DNA from: Escherichia virus TH47
Sequence record: MT446416.1
Strand: one strand, 5' to 3'
Length of the DNA: 64,000 nucleotides
In this document: one piece after another, positions 3,300 to 42,155 of the stretch
Numbering within the stretch: the first letter of the stretch is position 1
Layout: every line of letters starts with the position of its first letter
Translations under genes and position numbers: made by a program
Notes under the pieces: generated by a model
Told to the model about the DNA's origin: nothing
The model's database searches: none
What the model saw: only the letters and a program-made list of their open reading frames with translations

Positions 3300-3333
3300 G
3301 TTTGCCTCCAGTAGTTGATGAAATGATTATAGC

Positions 3334-3366
3334 AAAAAGGGCCGACCGAAGTCAACCCTTTTTTTA
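3334..3366 (-). terminator. rho-independent terminator, conserved GGGUUGAC-UUCG-GUCGGCCC hairpin plus U-run
   Basis: Plus strand aaaaagggccgaccgaagtcaacccttttttt; on the minus transcript a stem with UUCG tetraloop followed by a U tract; lies just past the stop of 3364..3747. Confidence 0.55.
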
Positions 3367-10414: not shown

Positions 10415-10451
10415 AATTAAAATCCCCAGTATTTGATGAAATAATTATAAC

Positions 10452-10484
10452 AAAAAAGGCTGACCGAAGTCAACCTTTATTTTG
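10452..10484 (-). terminator. rho-independent terminator, conserved hairpin overlapping the stop codon of 10470..10691
   Basis: caaaaaaggctgaccgaagtcaacctttatttt; the TGA stop of the upstream gene lies in the stem. Confidence 0.5.
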
Positions 10485-16714: not shown

Positions 16715-17509
16715 TTAAATTACATACGGTTTATAGTAATGAATCTCGTTTGCGATTGCAGTGAAGACTTTATTATTAAATCTTTCACCATAATCACGAA
16801 GTGATTCACCTTCTTCGCTTTCAATGAAGTAATTATATACTGGTAGACGTGCGTTGTCAACACCTATAAATGATTTCATGTAAATTTGTACTAAACGATT
16901 CATTCCTTCATTTAAGCATTGCACCTCAAAGTGCTTGATACCTTTGTCTAAATGTTTGAATGCATTAATGATACCACGTTTAAAATCACGCTGCATAGTA
17001 CTGAATAAATTCTCAGGGAACACGGTAATAGGTGACATTGATTTAAGAATGTATGTATCTTTGGCATTCTTAATGTACTCAATAAAGCAGTAGTTAACGT
17101 CCGGCTCAATTGAACGATCCGCGTTATGATACCAGTGTTTAAACTCACTGTACTCAGCAAACTTATGCTGGCGTAATGCGTTACAATCCTCACACAGTGC
17201 AGTTATGTTCTCTTTATCATTACCGCCCTGGAGACAGTCCAGTACATTATGGTCTAACGTCATGCGTACAAGGCGTTTACCTTTAAGTACATAAGGTCTG
17301 AATTTATAACGGTCTTTAGTACTGTGCTTATGTAAAGTGAATACCACATTGGATTCACCACAACAATCACATTTAAAGCCATCACGTGACATTACATGAA
17401 TGAGTTTTCGAGTATTTGGGCCGAACTCAGATTTAGTAATGTTGCCGACAATTTCTGATGGGTCGTAGTATTTTGAATTCCGGCGAATCAATTCATCTAT
17501 AGTGCTCAT
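16715..17509 (-). CDS. HNH endonuclease (264 aa)
   Basis: Cys cluster CDCCGE and HNH-like block DHNVLDCLQGGNDKENITALCEDCN. Confidence 0.6.
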   Translation of the reverse strand: MSTIDELIRRNSKYYDPSEIVGNITKSEFGPNTRKLIHVMSRDGFKCDCCGESNVVFTLHKHSTKDRYKFRPYVLKGKRLVRMTLDHNVLDCLQGGNDKENITALCEDCNALRQHKFAEYSEFKHWYHNADRSIEPDVNYCFIEYIKNAKDTYILKSMSPITVFPENLFSTMQRDFKRGIINAFKHLDKGIKHFEVQCLNEGMNRLVQIYMKSFIGVDNARLPVYNYFIESEEGESLRDYGERFNNKVFTAIANEIHYYKPYVI

Positions 17510-17510
17510 T

Positions 17511-17741
17511 TTACATTAATCCTTCTATGCTACAACCAATAAGTACTTTTTTCACTTCAATAACTCGTACCAAATAGAATCCATTTGAAAAGTTAAAACT
17601 ATACATTTGTACTAAGGCATCTGCTTCAGATTTCGCACGGATACATGATAGATATAGTTCTCGTATATCGCCATCCAACGATGCTTGTTTCTCGTCATTG
17701 ATAACAATAGAACGAATCTCAAAACGAACACCATAACTCAT
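17511..17741 (-). CDS. hypothetical protein (76 aa)
   Basis: ORF in gene series. Confidence 0.4.
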   Translation of the reverse strand: MSYGVRFEIRSIVINDEKQASLDGDIRELYLSCIRAKSEADALVQMYSFNFSNGFYLVRVIEVKKVLIGCSIEGLM

Positions 17742-17947
17742 TCTGTTTGTCCAACAATTAGTTTTTCTTTAGTATTACTATTGTAACACCACATTAATTC
17801 TTCACCAACTGTTCTAAGTGAAACGCTGTTTACTTGTTCATACGTACTGTCACGTACTGCAATGCATTGATTCATTGAATTCATTGGGGTGATTTGTACA
17901 CCAGATTGTGGTGAAAGAGCAATAATTAAAAAGATTACTGAATTCAT
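17738..17947 (-). CDS. hypothetical protein (69 aa)
   Basis: gaggaa SD upstream; preceded by promoter 18012..18040. Confidence 0.45.
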   Translation of the reverse strand: MNSVIFLIIALSPQSGVQITPMNSMNQCIAVRDSTYEQVNSVSLRTVGEELMWCYNSNTKEKLIVGQTE

Positions 17948-18011
17948 TAGATATTCCTCAATGGTTAATCATCCATCTCTTCGAGATGTCTGTTCGCTTC
18001 TAATACTACGT

Positions 18012-18040
18012 ATTCTACGCGAATGAATCATAACTGTCAA
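18012..18040 (-). promoter_or_regulatory. sigma70-type promoter (TTGACA-N17-TAGAAT)
   Basis: Minus-strand reading ttgacagttatgattcattcgcgtagaat upstream of gene 17738..17947. Confidence 0.45.
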
Positions 18041-18552
18041 GGACTTTTAATATTGACGGGATTTGTTGAGGACTTTTTCATCCCCCGCAGGGGAATGATG
18101 GTAAGAAAAAAGAGACAATTAAGTCTCTTCTTGACGCTGATGGCATCGGATTTTATTGTATCGTGAATTTAGGACGGATCTATATTGTAATAAATCAATC
18201 GCAAACGGAAGCGGGTTGCTCTGTTTCTCCCTATCACGGTCATATGCAACGGTCACTGGTCTTTTCATCCCAGCACTCACTTAAAACTCCATACAATCGA
18301 AGTTCAAGCTGTCTTATAATAAGACTCCCTTAGCAAATCTGGTAAGGTGCGATCCTTATATGTCTATCGAGGAACTCTCGGTATGCTTATCGGAGTTCTT
18401 TATACAGCCGCATTGCCGTGAGGGGTTCAAACTATGCCCACATCTAACGGGTTTCTTTTGCTGTTCGTTCTGTAGCACAACTCATCTGCCCTCTACATTT
18501 TCGAGTGGTTCAGGATTATTTTATTCTAAATGAGCTACAGGTTTTTTTTATT

Positions 18553-19197
18553 CTAAATTTTACTTAATGACAAAGTAATACGTCCATTAAGTAAATCATC
18601 GTTTAAAACATCAATTCTACGTTGTAAACCTTTTATTACACCATCTGACACACTATTATTATATTTTTTAATAATATCAGAAAGATGTTCTTTTTTGGCT
18701 AATTGCCATTTTGCATGAGCTTCTTCAGGTGTGGGAAATGCACCCAAATGATATTTTTTCTTATTTTTGTAAATTTGTGCATAATATGGATTTTTGTATT
18801 CAAAACTCATATTTTTTTTAGGTATATGATAACAAACACCAAGTGGTTGATTTTTATTATTTTTGTCAATGATACACATGTTTATTTCATTTGGTACAAA
18901 TGAACACGTTTCAGGAGAATACATTTTTTTATTACCGTCGATTAAATCTTTATCTAATTCATAACCATCTTTGTAATTTGATATATACCATTCTTTAAAT
19001 TTAGAGTATGTTTTCCATTCATCACATATAATAACTCCTATATATGTTTTATGAGTTTCTTGATACTTTTCAGAATAACATCGTTTTATCATATCTTTCC
19101 ATGTATAATAAACTTTACTATAAACACTTTTTTTTGTGGAATCACCTTTAACATCATTGATTCCAAAACCATATACCAATTTCATATTAAATTCCAA
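18553..19197 (-). CDS. free-standing homing-endonuclease-like protein (214 aa), degenerate HNH/AP2-like
   Basis: ELDKDLIDGNKKMYSPETCSFVP resembles an HNH core with the first His replaced; YHLGAFPTPEEAHAKWQLAK resembles an AP2-type DNA-binding segment. Confidence 0.4.
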   Translation of the reverse strand: MEFNMKLVYGFGINDVKGDSTKKSVYSKVYYTWKDMIKRCYSEKYQETHKTYIGVIICDEWKTYSKFKEWYISNYKDGYELDKDLIDGNKKMYSPETCSFVPNEINMCIIDKNNKNQPLGVCYHIPKKNMSFEYKNPYYAQIYKNKKKYHLGAFPTPEEAHAKWQLAKKEHLSDIIKKYNNSVSDGVIKGLQRRIDVLNDDLLNGRITLSLSKI

Positions 19198-19246
19198 TTA
19201 TGGTTATCATACTAACATTGTATCACACTTTCTAAATTTGTCCCAT

Positions 19247-19277
19247 AAAAAAAGGGCTGACAGAAGTCAACCCTTTA
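19247..19277 (-). terminator. rho-independent terminator, conserved hairpin variant
   Basis: aaaaaaagggctgacagaagtcaaccctttaat just past the sigma-factor gene stop. Confidence 0.55.
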
Positions 19278-19280
19278 ATC

Positions 19281-20246
19281 TTAAAAATCTTCGAACTCAT
19301 AACCTTTTGTCTTAACCATCTTACGCAGTCGTTCCATTGCTTCAGAGTACTTACGGTGCAATGAAGAACGAGCAGTCATGACCTTACCCTTCTCATCTTC
19401 AAAACCACTCTCAATGATTTCTCGTAGCGTTTCTGGTTCAGAATAAGAACCAATACCATGTACACGTTCAATCAATTCACGGTCTTTGGCAGATAGGTTA
19501 CTCATCATTTCTGCAATACTTTGTACCAGTGGGGTACTGACAGTTTCTACGCCTAAGTTGTAATCAGGTTCAACTGAAGTAACAATGTCAGATAATGTAC
19601 TTTCTGAATCATTACTCATTTTCATATTCAATGCTACATAAGTGTTATTGTAAGTTAGACAATTCTTAACGTGTTGAATCTCAATACCAGTCTCTTTTGA
19701 CACCATCTCAGGAGTTGGGTATTTACCATGTTTCCTTTGATACTCTTCAACACAACGTTTCACATAAATGTTATTAACACTCATATAACGTGGGAAATGC
19801 ACTAGATAATTAGCATCTGCACTTTCGTTATAGATTGTCATGTACACAGTTGTTGTTGCATATGTAATGAACTTAACATTTTTGGTAGTGTCGAACGTAT
19901 GAATTGCTCGCATTAAACCTTCAACACCATAAGAAATCTTATCTTCAAATGGGATAAAACATGTACATTTACGTGCAACACTTACTACCATTGGATAGTT
20001 GTAGCGAACCAAAAGGTCAATGTTCTTTTCAACGTCAATACCATCACGCACTGCTTGGATGAGCATTTCATTCGTTATACCTTTAGGGCGAGTTAAACTG
20101 ATACCTGTTTTTGGTTTCTCAAACTTGTGACCGTCATGTTCTTCTTCATCAACCGAATCTAGAGCCTCTAAGACGTTGACTTCTTCACTAGCAAAACACT
20201 CATCCAGTACTTCTTCAAAAATTGCATTTAAATCAAGCTTTTTCAC
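19281..20246 (-). CDS. sigma70-family RNA polymerase sigma factor (321 aa)
   Basis: Region 2-like LVRYNYPMVVSVARK...FITYATTTVYMTIYNE and region 4 HTH-like LSAKDRELIERVHGIGSYSEPETLREI...ERLRKM. Confidence 0.7.
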   Translation of the reverse strand: MKKLDLNAIFEEVLDECFASEEVNVLEALDSVDEEEHDGHKFEKPKTGISLTRPKGITNEMLIQAVRDGIDVEKNIDLLVRYNYPMVVSVARKCTCFIPFEDKISYGVEGLMRAIHTFDTTKNVKFITYATTTVYMTIYNESADANYLVHFPRYMSVNNIYVKRCVEEYQRKHGKYPTPEMVSKETGIEIQHVKNCLTYNNTYVALNMKMSNDSESTLSDIVTSVEPDYNLGVETVSTPLVQSIAEMMSNLSAKDRELIERVHGIGSYSEPETLREIIESGFEDEKGKVMTARSSLHRKYSEAMERLRKMVKTKGYEFEDF

Positions 20247-20268
20247 TTACTTCTCCTAATGAATGAAA

Positions 20269-20766
20269 TCAAAAACGGTATACATTAATATTATCATCGG
20301 TATAGATATCATGGTTATGAACATCCATGAAGGTATCAAATACCTTATCAAGAAGAGTATTATACTCTTCATGTAATGCTGCATCAAGCATGTATTCACC
20401 ACCACTACCCATAAAGAATGTATAATCATTATGGAGATAATCAATCTTCTTGGTAAACTTACCCTTATTAATGATTAAGTGAATGATGTAATCTTTTGAC
20501 ACAAGAACACAGTGACAACTCGCCTTGCGGTCTGGTATCACAGTCTCTTGTGAAATCAAGTATCTCAGTACTTTGTTAATTTCACTAACCTCACCGCAAG
20601 CACTAAACAGTCGGTCGTGTACATACAATGTTTTTTGTGAAACTACACCATAACTAAGTTTTGGCTTCAACGGGAATAGGTTCAAAAATGAACGCTGCTC
20701 AGTTGATGTCACTTTTGAATCAGTAAGTAATACTCCCAAGCGTTTATCAATATAAACAGTTGTCAT
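20269..20766 (-). CDS. hypothetical protein (165 aa)
   Basis: ORF; preferred over the overlapping 20256..20444 frame. Confidence 0.5.
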   Translation of the reverse strand: MTTVYIDKRLGVLLTDSKVTSTEQRSFLNLFPLKPKLSYGVVSQKTLYVHDRLFSACGEVSEINKVLRYLISQETVIPDRKASCHCVLVSKDYIIHLIINKGKFTKKIDYLHNDYTFFMGSGGEYMLDAALHEEYNTLLDKVFDTFMDVHNHDIYTDDNINVYRF

Positions 20767-20767
20767 A

Positions 20768-21187
20768 TTAAACCTTATCTAAAAATTTAGCATAGATATA
20801 AAATTCTTTATCGTTGAATACATTAATTCTAATATCGAAGCGTTGAAGTGTATTCATGTATAATGAACTTTTTAAATAAAAATACAATGCAACAAATTCA
20901 GATATATGCATATTCTTTTTATTATTACATAAATTCTTTAGCATTTTAATGCTATCAAAATCATCTTTATCATATCTGTACTGGAAAAAATTGTATCTAT
21001 TTGAACGGCACTCATAGATGAGAAGGGCCATTATATCAATACATGCTTGAGATTTACAGTACTTATTCAATACAGGGTAATCACCAGTACATAATGCTAC
21101 GAAGATTTTATGTGCAAGTGTTGCTTTGCCTTCAATCGTATAATAGCCAAAAAATTTAATGATTAAGTAATGTATAAATCTAAGCAT
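20768..21187 (-). CDS. hypothetical protein (139 aa)
   Basis: ORF in gene series. Confidence 0.5.
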   Translation of the reverse strand: MLRFIHYLIIKFFGYYTIEGKATLAHKIFVALCTGDYPVLNKYCKSQACIDIMALLIYECRSNRYNFFQYRYDKDDFDSIKMLKNLCNNKKNMHISEFVALYFYLKSSLYMNTLQRFDIRINVFNDKEFYIYAKFLDKV

Positions 21188-21192
21188 TGGAT

Positions 21193-21453
21193 TTAGAATT
21201 TCTCCGAAATTACAAGTGTATCATCATAGTCATCAGCAACGGAGTTCAGTACTTCCAAATTACTTTCACCAGAAATACTTTGTACTTCGTTCAAAAGATA
21301 GTTTAGATCAACAGTTGTTACTTTTTCTGAATCAAACACACAGAAAGTCAATTCAGCGTTTGGACAGATCTTCTTCAGATTATCAGCAACAACTTGTTTG
21401 AAGTTAAAAGATGGGGAAGCAACCAGGTTAACTGCAACGAGAATAGATTTCAT
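21193..21453 (-). CDS. hypothetical protein (86 aa)
   Basis: ORF in gene series. Confidence 0.45.
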   Translation of the reverse strand: MKSILVAVNLVASPSFNFKQVVADNLKKICPNAELTFCVFDSEKVTTVDLNYLLNEVQSISGESNLEVLNSVADDYDDTLVISEKF

Positions 21454-21527
21454 AATGTTTTCCTTTTTAGCTGATAATTAAATTAGGAGCACATTGTACT
21501 CCATGTTATTGGTTAAGTCAAATACTT

Positions 21528-21779
21528 TTAGATACCGAGTACTGAATTCAATTCTTTACGCTTGTTATATGAATCAGATTCAAACTTGCTTTTCTTATTG
21601 AAAAGGGATTCGATATCCTTATAGATAGCTTCGATGGATTTAGTTACAACCCATTCGGATTCCTGAAGCATAGCTTGAAGACGTGCGTACTCAACTTTGA
21701 TAGTACTGCGAAGTTCTTCACAAGCTTCTTCGTTCTTAATTAGTGCTTCACTAAGTTCTTTGACCTTATCGATGTTCAT
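21528..21779 (-). CDS. hypothetical coiled-coil-like protein (83 aa)
   Basis: ORF in gene series. Confidence 0.45.
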   Translation of the reverse strand: MNIDKVKELSEALIKNEEACEELRSTIKVEYARLQAMLQESEWVVTKSIEAIYKDIESLFNKKSKFESDSYNKRKELNSVLGI

Positions 21780-21838
21780 AAGTTCCTTACCATTTCCTAG
21801 TTTTGATGTAATAATTATATATCTCTCAATAACTCACG

Positions 21839-22270
21839 TCAACTGTTTTCCGTACCTTTCTCTGCCATTTTGGTGATGTGCCATTTGAGTACTGATTTGT
21901 GTACCATAAAAAATGTGAATGCAAAGACTGTAATGGCTGCTGAAGTAACACTATTAGATAAAGACCCAAGTTGGATGTTAGTACCTAAAATAACAATAAA
22001 TGGATACAACACAATAAATCTACTGTAAGGTTCGTCTCCAGTATCACGGATAAATACAAGCCTTTCATGATCAGTATCCATTGTGACAATTACAATTGGA
22101 AAGAACATAAGTGCAGACATAAGAGCAATACCAATTTGTGCTACATTGGAAATTGTAAACCACAAAGGATTTAAACCATATGAAATGTTATTTTCAGTAC
22201 AGTAATATCCGAATGTATTGAATGTACAAACTAAAAATACAAAAATGCAAATCTTATTGTATGCCCTCAT
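21839..22270 (-). CDS. multi-pass membrane protein (143 aa)
   Basis: Several hydrophobic segments. Confidence 0.5.
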   Translation of the reverse strand: MRAYNKICIFVFLVCTFNTFGYYCTENNISYGLNPLWFTISNVAQIGIALMSALMFFPIVIVTMDTDHERLVFIRDTGDEPYSRFIVLYPFIVILGTNIQLGSLSNSVTSAAITVFAFTFFMVHKSVLKWHITKMAEKGTENS

Positions 22271-23200: not shown

Positions 23201-23644
23201 CTATTTGGAGTCAACACATTTCAACAAGTATTTTTCTATGTATCTTATATGTGATGGTGGTAACAGTAAGTTTTCGTATCTAACCCTGTACACACTACAA
23301 TCTCCTAGATGAAAATGACTGGTAGGATACAAGTCAGTTCTAATACTAACACGTTTACGATTATCAGTAAAGTTAATTAATGATTTTGGATTGTTATTAG
23401 CATGAGTTCTTACAAAGTATTCAATTTCATTGAGTGCTTTTTCGTCGTATACATACTTGTCAAACACACCTAGTGTAAAGTACCTTGGATGGTACATATA
23501 TGAGAATAACAATGCAGGAATATACTTCTTTATCCCTTCGTGTTTTGCAATAGCTGAAGCATATGCAAAATGTGATGCATCAGAGAAGATGTTAAGAAAA
23601 ATGAAATATGACACTAATAAACCTAGAATCAGCAAAAGTGTCAT
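23201..23644 (-). CDS. membrane-anchored hypothetical protein (147 aa)
   Basis: N-terminal hydrophobic helix. Confidence 0.5.
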   Translation of the reverse strand: MTLLLILGLLVSYFIFLNIFSDASHFAYASAIAKHEGIKKYIPALLFSYMYHPRYFTLGVFDKYVYDEKALNEIEYFVRTHANNNPKSLINFTDNRKRVSIRTDLYPTSHFHLGDCSVYRVRYENLLLPPSHIRYIEKYLLKCVDSK

Positions 23645-34154: not shown

Positions 34155-34507
34155 TATTTTATTTCAAAGTTTGTGAGCCATCTGTGAGTCGAACACAGTA
34201 CCTAACGATTCGTATAATCTATAGTTTTCACTATAGTACGGACTATATCATCATCCCATAGGGATGCCGGACGCTAATGATGTATTACACAGTAAGATCG
34301 TACTGTACCATCTAGTCTCTGCACCTTCCCAATACGCTTATTGGGCTTGGCTCAGGATTGTCATCACCATTACGTGTTAAGATTTCCCTGAATTCATCCA
34401 GTTTTTCAATCACCATTACTGATGAAAGTCACCATTGTCGATGAGTCGTTTGCTCTAACCACCGTGAGCTAATGGCCCGATTTGGGTGTTCCTAGTGTTT
34501 CATTATT

Positions 34508-34721
<214 letters not shown>

Positions 34722-34733
34722 AAATTAATTATA

Positions 34734-35126
<393 letters not shown>

Positions 35127-37004: not shown

Positions 37005-37024
37005 ATCCTTAATATTATATTTTA

Positions 37025-37096
37025 TAAAGGGCCGGAGAATCGAACTCCGATTGGATTCTTAGAAGGAATCTGTTTTATCCATTAAACTAGCCCCTC
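37025..37096 (-). tRNA. tRNA-Arg (anticodon TCT)
   Basis: Manual fold: D-stem GTTT/AAAC, anticodon stem GATTC/GAATC with loop CTTCTAA, T-arm CGGAG-TTCGATT-CTCCG; acceptor GAGGGGC/GCCCTTT needs two G-U pairs including 1:72. Confidence 0.5.
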
Positions 37097-37156
37097 AGTA
37101 CTAATAATTATATCACATCTTTGTGGTCTGTCCCAGAAATTGTGATATAAAAGTTG

Positions 37157-42038: not shown

Positions 42039-42155
42039 TTTAATACCCTTTTATTTCTTTTTTATGAAAAACCCTCATCATTGAGGAATGGTTTGCATTT
42101 TTACATCTGCCGATAATATACATTATATCATGCTTTTCAGCGTTGTCCCAAAAAA

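Follow-up and report, generated by a model that had tools for sequence, protein, structure and literature searches.

Escherichia virus TH47 encodes a sigma-70-family sigma factor of 321 amino acids (19281..20246, minus strand of the 64,000-nucleotide stretch of sequence record MT446416.1 analysed here, hereafter the window) that may be the reader of a second class of promoters, GrGACA-N16-TGnTAyAAT, found in this phage and its relatives. The phage is a RaK2-like jumbo myovirus, and the gene is, by sequence comparison, an orthologue of the RpoD-like sigma factor found in the core gene set of that phage group. The presence of such a gene is already known, because it is annotated in related phages and discussed in the literature; new here are the early-type layout of its operon, the second promoter class and its gene set, the lineage-specific -35 element, and a testable regulon and cascade. 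In its most inclusive form the proposal is tentative, with a probability a little short of even: the sigma factor and the GrGACA-N16-TGnTAyAAT promoters would be an orthogonal pair with a co-evolving -35 specificity (GrGACA, TTGAACA, TGAAACg) read by a sigma-4 domain that has an insertion in its helix-turn-helix (HTH) motif, and this pair would form the middle tier of a three-sigma cascade on the host core RNA polymerase, controlling replication genes, the late sigma gene and a family of structured ~500-nt RNAs, not described before, with four copies per genome.

Membership of the gene product in the sigma-70 family is virtually certain. Two Pfam domains score above their curated cut-offs, Sigma70_r2 (PF04542, 37.3 bits versus 24, residues 79-141, a part of the protein that pairs with sigma-70 residues 380-445) and Sigma70_r3 (PF04539, 44.8 bits versus 25.3, residues 162-224), and PHROG 351, 'RNA polymerase sigma factor', matches with an E-value of 1.8e-47. 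All 68 of the 68 phmmer matches in the PDB are sigma factors, the best being mycobacterial SigB (2.6e-17), with RpoS (E 2.6e-15) aligned to residues 79-319; Foldseek searches with a model of the full protein likewise returned sigma factors exclusively (5ipl_F, E 8e-11), with sigma-S and sigma-A matched over ~265 columns. The earlier note on this DNA, which had proposed a sigma70-family protein from the letters of the sequence, had named a lack of profile similarity as its refutation; that test was run and came out opposite. Chance similarity to sigma-70 was rejected as an explanation.

The nearest NCBIfam models are those of RpoD, SigB and RpoS (TIGR02393, RpoD_Cterm, 96 bits versus a cut-off of 354; TIGR02394, RpoS, 81.8 versus 378.7); the group 3 models (FliA/WhiG, SigB/F/G) score 67.5 versus 234 (TIGR02980) and 61.3 versus 189.6 (TIGR02479). 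All cut-offs are missed three- to four-fold, and thus the protein falls in no curated bacterial subgroup. A gp55-type late sigma factor was ruled out, as the PHROG search gave no match to the gp55 families (phrog_234, phrog_12791) and regions 2-4 are present in full. Recent capture of host rpoD or rpoS was also ruled out, by an identity of ~25-27% at most to cellular sigma factors.

In an AlphaFold model built with the family alignment, residues 51-143, 156-199 and 240-315 form confidently predicted domains and the N-terminus is disordered; the protein can be divided into an acidic N-terminal extension (1-50), sigma-2 (~51-143), sigma-3 (~156-199), a region 3.2 linker (200-238) and sigma-4 (240-315). 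Both of the peptides described as RpoD-like in the earlier note are present: when the phage family is aligned to E. coli sigma-70 (reference sequence identical to PDB 4jk1_X) by hidden Markov models, LLVRYNYPMVVSVARK (residues 78-93) pairs with region 2.1, and FITYATTTVYMTIYNE (residues 126-141) pairs with FSTYATWWIRQAITRS of region 2.3/2.4. The claim of a protein spanning regions 2-4 holds for regions 2 and 3 at the level of Pfam, and for region 4 as a predicted fold only, since neither of the Pfam region 4 models (PF04545, PF08281) matches this protein at E-values up to 1, or any of the 17 clusters of its family. In the region 4 comparison by hhalign, just region 4.1 and the first HTH helix were aligned (E 0.011). 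A model of the C-terminal 93 residues alone (predicted local distance difference test score, pLDDT, 80; predicted template modelling score, pTM, 0.68) was compared with the PDB, and the best 50 of 50 matches were sigma factors or isolated sigma-4 domains (6omf_F, template modelling score 0.76, 2.3 A; 6ido_B, root-mean-square deviation 1.6 A over 68 columns), with Foldseek E-values that the small size of the domain keeps weak (0.04-0.3). The exclusiveness of these matches indicates that region 4 is present, as modelled, in the form of a four-helix sigma-4 fold despite the silence of Pfam. The turn of the region 4.2 HTH contains a 10-residue insertion (G281-x2-D284-x2-G287-K), which is the most conserved segment of the protein across five phage genera, with 4 of 10 positions invariant.

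Region 1.1 is lacking, as had been claimed, and so is region 1.2: there was no match to PF03979 or PF00140, and hhalign against sigma-70 residues 1-155 produced a mere 10-column match. The N-terminus instead carries a family-specific motif, MKKLDLNxIxEEVLDECF, and its first 50 residues are acidic (15 D/E versus 5 K/R, isoelectric point 4.3); homology of this extension to region 1.1 was considered and is unsupported by hhalign, so that a 1.1-like role could be proposed by analogy at most.

At the residue level, Y430, F419, F427, D403 and P453 of sigma-70 are kept, and W433/W434 (replaced by T/T), R436 (Y), Q437 (M), T440 (Y), R441 (N), H455 (Y) and E458 (V) are not; the roles of the residues in this list are presumably -11A capture and flipping (Y430), the -12 wedge, -12 reading and TG reading. 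Reading of the alignment by hand places S105 opposite Q406. The recognition helix was likewise mapped by hand across the HTH insertion, and would retain R584 (as R293) and replace E585 by S294, R588 by H297 and Q589 by R298. The protein could conceivably be a competitor or decoy that occupies the host core enzyme and shuts off host transcription, directing no initiation of its own, as the absence of the melting residues W433/W434 and the apparent replacement of the core-binding residue Q406 would allow, but the protein keeps Y430, F419 and F427, a clade diverged to ~33% identity has preserved all three DNA-reading domains together with the region 3.2 linker, and an HTH insertion more conserved than any other segment is unexpected for a mere competitor; such a function is judged very improbable indeed.

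The sigma gene is widespread among jumbo phages. Positions 18000-21000 of the window are ~97% identical to Escherichia phages Ecwhy_1, WPEC3, WPEC5, Turkey3, fEgEco12 and vB_Ec-M-J, and ~78% identical to PBECO4, 121Q and phAPEC6, the match covering just ~69% of the query in each relative of either group. Over its full length the sigma protein is 99.1% identical to that of WPEC3, 98% to those of Turkey3 and fEgEco12, 59% to that of PBECO4/121Q, 40% to that of RaK2 and 37% to that of CBB. By tBLASTn the gene was found in 94 phage records, with at least 80% of the protein covered in 71, and the orthologues include those of Asteriusvirus (59%), Alcyoneusvirus RaK2 and K64-1 (40%), GAP32, CBB and Salmonella phage Munch (37%), Eneladusvirus BF and Yen9-04 (33-35%), and Xanthomonas phages XbC2 and XaC1 (32-34%), and Mimasvirus is represented as well. 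A protein search gave 17 phage clusters (35-98% identity), all on jumbo-sized contigs (up to 366 kb), followed by a gap down to cellular sigma factors at 27%. Most of the 94 records, and at least 30 related phage genomes, carry a sigma-factor annotation; named orthologues are CBB_513 (AMM44076), RaK2 ORF244 (AFA44517), PBECO4 AGC35036, the 'RpoD subfamily' protein of phAPEC6, Gp519 of fEgEco12 and 'sigma factor FliA' of WPEC3. The genes around the sigma gene are collinear with those of Turkey3, and PBECO4 has the same gene layout around its own. RpoD-like and minimal sigma factors have been described by Iyer et al. as a hallmark of 'group 2' jumbo phages, which have no RNA polymerase of their own (PMC7824862), and the sigma gene is mentioned in passing in the phAPEC6 and fEgEco12 papers; the searched literature contained no experimental characterisation of this sigma family.

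The second promoter class was recognised with the aid of the 97%-identical phage Turkey3 (PQ471515.1, 361 kb), in which genes were called and 248 upstream regions examined. Its promoters fall into the classes TTGACA/CTTGCA-N16-17-TATAAT, T4-like late motifs (TATAAATAAT), which precede genes for capsid, portal and baseplate, and tGrGACAaa-N10-gTGaTAyAAT; the same three classes were predicted in the CBB genome paper (PMC5259590). A strict pattern for the last class, GRGACA-N13-TGNTAYAAT, occurs four times in the window versus 0.00 expected from 100 shuffles, always on the minus (coding) strand, at 42149, 38813, 37134 (just before tRNA-Arg) and 19244, and 19 times on the coding strand of Turkey3 with no occurrence on the opposite strand. 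The statement in the earlier note that only host-type promoters were recognisable in the window was, in this respect, incomplete. The copy just after the sigma terminator is a candidate middle-class promoter, GGGACA-N16-(TGA)TACAAT (19217..19244, minus strand), located 37 nt after the sigma stop codon and ahead of an HNH-family endonuclease gene, and its position is kept in Turkey3, PBECO4 and RaK2, each with the -35 element of its own lineage.

The GrGACA class is statistically distinct from host-type promoters: in Turkey3, a 16-bp spacer is found in 18/19 of the GrGACA class versus 24/59 of the TTGACA type (p 3e-5), a TGn extended -10 in 17/19 versus 13/59 (p 2e-7), and a location at 60-277 kb in 17/19 versus 24/59 (p 2e-4). 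The Turkey3 genes preceded by GrGACA promoters include those of the DNA polymerase region, those encoding sliding clamp, SSB, primase, exonuclease and GyrB, and also a gp55-like late sigma gene (XMR01236, phrog_12791, E 1e-152). The annotated start of XMR01236 is probably ~35 codons too far upstream, because the promoter, GGGACA-N16-TATAAT, falls inside the annotated 5' end; the protein matches phrog_12791 from residue 36 onward only, and the promoter lies upstream of an ATG with a good ribosome-binding site. This late sigma gene, at Turkey3 191432-192370, is annotated there as 'RNA polymerase'. In the window, candidate middle-class promoters at 37107-37134 and 34729-34756 (both minus strand; the latter, at 34756, a TGGACA variant) lie directly 5' of tRNA-Arg (37024-37097) and tRNA-Ser (34632-34721), so that phage tRNAs appear in the regulon along with replication genes. 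The CBB motif TGAAACG, taken literally, shows no enrichment in the window (11 matches versus 9.0 expected), and k-mer analysis of the 248 Turkey3 upstream regions revealed no third non-late motif class.

These differences bear on the idea that the phage protein is a general substitute for sigma-70 on all TATAAT-type phage promoters, for instance after inactivation of the host factor, without specificity for one class. TATAAT is indeed common to all non-late phage promoters, and the best profile matches of the protein are the group 1/2 sigma factors RpoD_Cterm, SigB and RpoS; however, the two classes are set apart by the length of the spacer, the TG motif and where they lie in the genome, and specificity residues in regions 2.4, 3.0 and 4.2 have been replaced. 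General substitution is regarded as distinctly improbable, though less so than the decoy.

Specific reading of the GrGACA class by the phage sigma factor is given an even chance or marginally better. Part of the support is variation in the -35 box among orthologous sites. The box is GrGACA in TH47 and Turkey3, GGGACA or TGGACA in PBECO4, TGAAACg in CBB and Serratia phage BF, and TTGAACAAAA in RaK2, including the site directly after the RaK2 sigma gene. The TGAAACg version corresponds to what the CBB paper (PMC5259590) calls a 'divergent RpoD-like promoter'. The predicted recognition helix of region 4.2 also varies among those lineages (TARSSLHRKY, KSRSSIHRKY, TVRGTLHYKF, TSKATLSRRY). The hosts are all Enterobacterales, and region 4.2 of their sigma-70 is taken as identical; a -35 box that varies with the lineage of the phage is therefore indicative of a reader encoded by the phage.

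That reader might not be the sigma factor itself. If these phages have appropriated sigma-70 in the manner of T4, host sigma-70 would read TGnTATAAT while a phage activator, with or without an anti-sigma factor, contacts the GrGACA box, substituting for region 4, and the phage sigma factor would serve another set of promoters. The -10 and extended -10 elements of the class are canonical and the phage sigma factor is without H455, E458, Q437, T440 and W433/W434; moreover, CBB has an HTH_37 regulator gene two genes upstream of its sigma gene, and the middle promoters of T4 likewise consist of a sigma-70 -10 element and a box that replaces the -35. Homologues of AsiA and MotA were not detected in Turkey3 or the window, however (tBLASTn with queries verified against the PDB, nothing below E = 1), the 248 Turkey3 upstream regions offer no further non-late class for the sigma factor to serve, and the box occupies exactly the -35 position, shares the GACA core with the sigma-70 -35 element and keeps a constant 16-bp spacer. 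Appropriation of this kind is considered unlikely, although it is the least unlikely of the alternatives to direct reading by the phage sigma factor.

Several observations weigh against direct reading. The candidate promoters keep a canonical TGnTATAAT that should be well read by host sigma-70, and the phage protein has lost the residues with which sigma-70 reads -10 and TG (W433/W434, Q437, T440, H455, E458). Covariation between protein residues and the -10 and extended -10 elements was considered as support and rejected, for R436, Q437 and H455 are kept in the CBB and BF orthologues and missing from those of the E. coli phages, although every lineage uses TGnTATAAT; because the CBB protein keeps these readers with the same -10 element, the covariation is not clean. 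A co-evolving phage-encoded activator would explain the lineage-specific box equally well. The comparison extends to three or four lineages at ~35-60% identity, among which overall divergence by itself would be expected to produce the observed differences in the region 4.2 helix, and the HTH insertion was bridged by hand when the recognition helix was mapped. The searched literature held no expression, binding or transcription data for any family member.

If the sigma factor does read the GrGACA class, transcription might proceed in the following manner. The host holoenzyme containing sigma-70 (E-sigma70) would transcribe the sigma gene early from promoters of the form TTGACx-N17-TAyAAT, the layout of which is visible in the sequence. 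The phage sigma factor, by analogy with its homologues, would then replace sigma-70 on the host core RNA polymerase, and the new holoenzyme would read tGrGACAaa-N10-gTGaTAyAAT, in which the -35-like element is unlike TTGACA in its first two bases, the spacer is fixed at 16 bp and the -10 is extended. These promoters would drive 'middle' genes for replication, nucleotide metabolism, tRNA, the gp55-like late sigma factor and the structured non-coding RNAs, giving a three-step cascade from sigma-70 to the phage RpoD-like sigma and on to the phage gp55-like sigma. In such a cascade, TTGACA promoters and sigma mRNA would be active first, GrGACA start sites later and TATAAATA sites last. The suggestion of the earlier note that a phage sigma factor redirects host RNA polymerase to a distinct promoter class may accordingly apply to the GrGACA class. 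RaK2-like jumbo phages are not known to encode an RNA polymerase, and therefore their whole programme must run via factors that re-target the host enzyme. These phages are candidates for therapy. Direct reading, if true, would provide a compact orthogonal sigma/promoter pair working in E. coli, and would explain the timing of the replication genes, the late sigma gene and the structured RNA family.

The surroundings of the sigma gene are consistent with early expression. Window genes are nearly all on the minus strand, as are all features of this locus, including the sigma gene, for which the earlier note gave no strand. The gene starts with GTG at 20246, with a ribosome-binding site AGGAG (20257-20253, read from the sequence) 6 nt 5' of it, and is the last of five tightly packed genes, the others (20269..21779) being orf83 (21528-21779), orf86 (21193-21453), orf139 (20768-21187) and an HslV-like peptidase gene (20269-20766). 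The product of the latter, adjoining gene is a distant homologue of the HslV family (phrog_1040, E 4e-6), and its counterpart in Turkey3 and fEgEco12 is annotated as an ATP-dependent protease subunit. A host-type promoter, TTGACG-17-TATAAT (21814..21842, 11/12 match), stands at the head of the operon and another, TTGACT-17-TACAAT (21493..21521, 10/12 match), inside it; stronger host-type promoters are found further upstream at 23214 and 25033, and no GrGACA-class promoter occurs between 25033 and the sigma gene. A strong intrinsic terminator (19276-19251), an 11-bp stem followed by a T-run, begins 5 nt after the stop codon. With only host-type promoters upstream and a terminator of its own, the sigma gene looks early, and it probably belongs to an early operon read by E-sigma70. 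This timing agrees with the CBB genome paper, in which the sigma gene is placed in the early region as a likely host-takeover gene (PMC5259590).

The sigma terminator (19251-19276) is itself a copy of the hairpin of a recurrent fused terminator-promoter module, GGGTTGACTTCGGTCAGCCCTTTTT-TGyTATAAT (10444-10473 and 3326-3355, minus strand), with the -10 part swapped for the GGGACA promoter. In the fused module, which occurs in PBECO4 and CBB too, the -35 element TTGACT is inside the terminator stem and the T-run is the spacer.

The endonuclease gene and the stretch free of open reading frames (ORFs), which the earlier note had placed downstream of the sigma gene, do both lie there on the minus strand, with the sigma terminator between. 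The free-standing HNH-family endonuclease gene (18553..19197, 214 aa) matches PHROG 953, 'HNH endonuclease' (E 3.5e-74), and has no significant Pfam match. It begins directly after the -10 of the post-sigma promoter. In the alignment with Turkey3, homology extends through the sigma terminator and the promoter up to the -10, breaks, and resumes inside the ORF-free stretch. The guanine-plus-cytosine (GC) content of the gene is 25.6% versus 34.3% for the window; megablast of the cassette against 50,697 phage records gave no match at the roughly >=85% identity that megablast detects; and the best relatives of the protein (53% identity) are at other loci of other jumbo phages. Judging from the homology break, the low GC content, the absence of AGTACT (a palindrome otherwise abundant in the window), the lack of a phage DNA match and the location of its relatives, the gene is a mobile cassette that has inserted, in this phage only, into the leader of the transcript downstream. 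A second HNH endonuclease gene (16715-17509, minus strand; phrog_35175, E 2.7e-149, with weak Pfam HNH matches), 1 kb beyond the non-coding RNA described below, is kept in Turkey3, where it is annotated as a hypothetical protein.

The ORF-free stretch at ~17948-18552 is, to judge by comparative sequence data, a conserved structured RNA of ~0.5 kb (18030..18545, minus strand, ~500 nt, with a terminator at 18128-18106). Turkey3 has four paralogous copies (at 61.9, 111.8, 196.2 and 309.5 kb; 72-94% identical), 4/4 of which sit behind a GrGACA promoter, and homologues behind the promoter version of their own lineage are found in PBECO4 (where it again follows the sigma gene closely), CBB (two copies), BF and RaK2 (partial). 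RNAalifold, applied to just five copies, predicted 101 pairs, and compensatory double changes occur at 36 of these. Rfam yielded nothing meaningful over 17900-19300 of the window at the gathering threshold or at E <= 1, nhmmer found no match to the RNA profile in the PA5oct region that contains ncRNA001 and ncRNA002, and no mention of the ~500-nt RNA was found in the searched literature; the structured RNA probably has a better claim to novelty than the sigma gene. A host-type promoter, TTGACA-17-TAGAAT (18012..18040, minus strand), apparently restarts transcription for the next protein genes.

Elsewhere in the window, the palindrome AGTACT is strikingly abundant, with 156 occurrences versus 17.7 +/- 3.8 expected, or about one per 400 nt, and 981 in Turkey3 versus ~124 by our own base-composition estimate. 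It occurs in coding and intergenic DNA alike (e.g. at 20206 and 19346), often within early promoters as CAGTACTGTATAAT, but there is none in 17548-19345, the interval that contains the HNH cassette and the non-coding RNA. A group I intron (34219-34532, minus strand; Rfam RF00028, 100.5 bits, full length) is located in the tRNA cluster, 100 nt downstream of tRNA-Ser.

Among known systems, the closest are the RpoD-like sigma factors of other RaK2-like phages, which share with the TH47 protein the N-terminal motif, the HTH insertion and a place in a collinear block of small early-type genes; the HNH endonuclease cassette between the post-sigma promoter and the non-coding RNA is found in TH47 only. 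Bacterial sigma-70 factors of groups 1 and 2 (RpoD, RpoS, mycobacterial SigA and SigB) have the same order and fold of sigma-2, sigma-3, region 3.2 and sigma-4 and give the best sequence and structure matches, but are ~25% identical to the phage protein, which differs from them in the absence of regions 1.1 and 1.2 and in the possession of the HTH insertion and the acidic N-terminus. The minimal late sigma factors of the T4 gp55 type are likewise phage sigma factors acting on the host core, but belong to a different family and are encoded by a different gene from the one studied here. T4 employs MotA and AsiA with host sigma-70 for its middle genes and gp55 for its late genes, a strategy from which TH47 differs in that tBLASTn found no counterpart of MotA or AsiA in Turkey3 or the window. 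In the cascade of Bacillus phage SPO1, the early protein gp28 replaces the primary sigma factor on the host core for transcription of middle genes, and gp33/34 drives the late genes. The logic proposed for the TH47 sigma factor is the same as that of gp28, which is a shorter protein with promoters unlike those of its host, whereas in the candidate promoters of TH47 the main departures from the host type are the first two -35 bases and the requirement for TGn.

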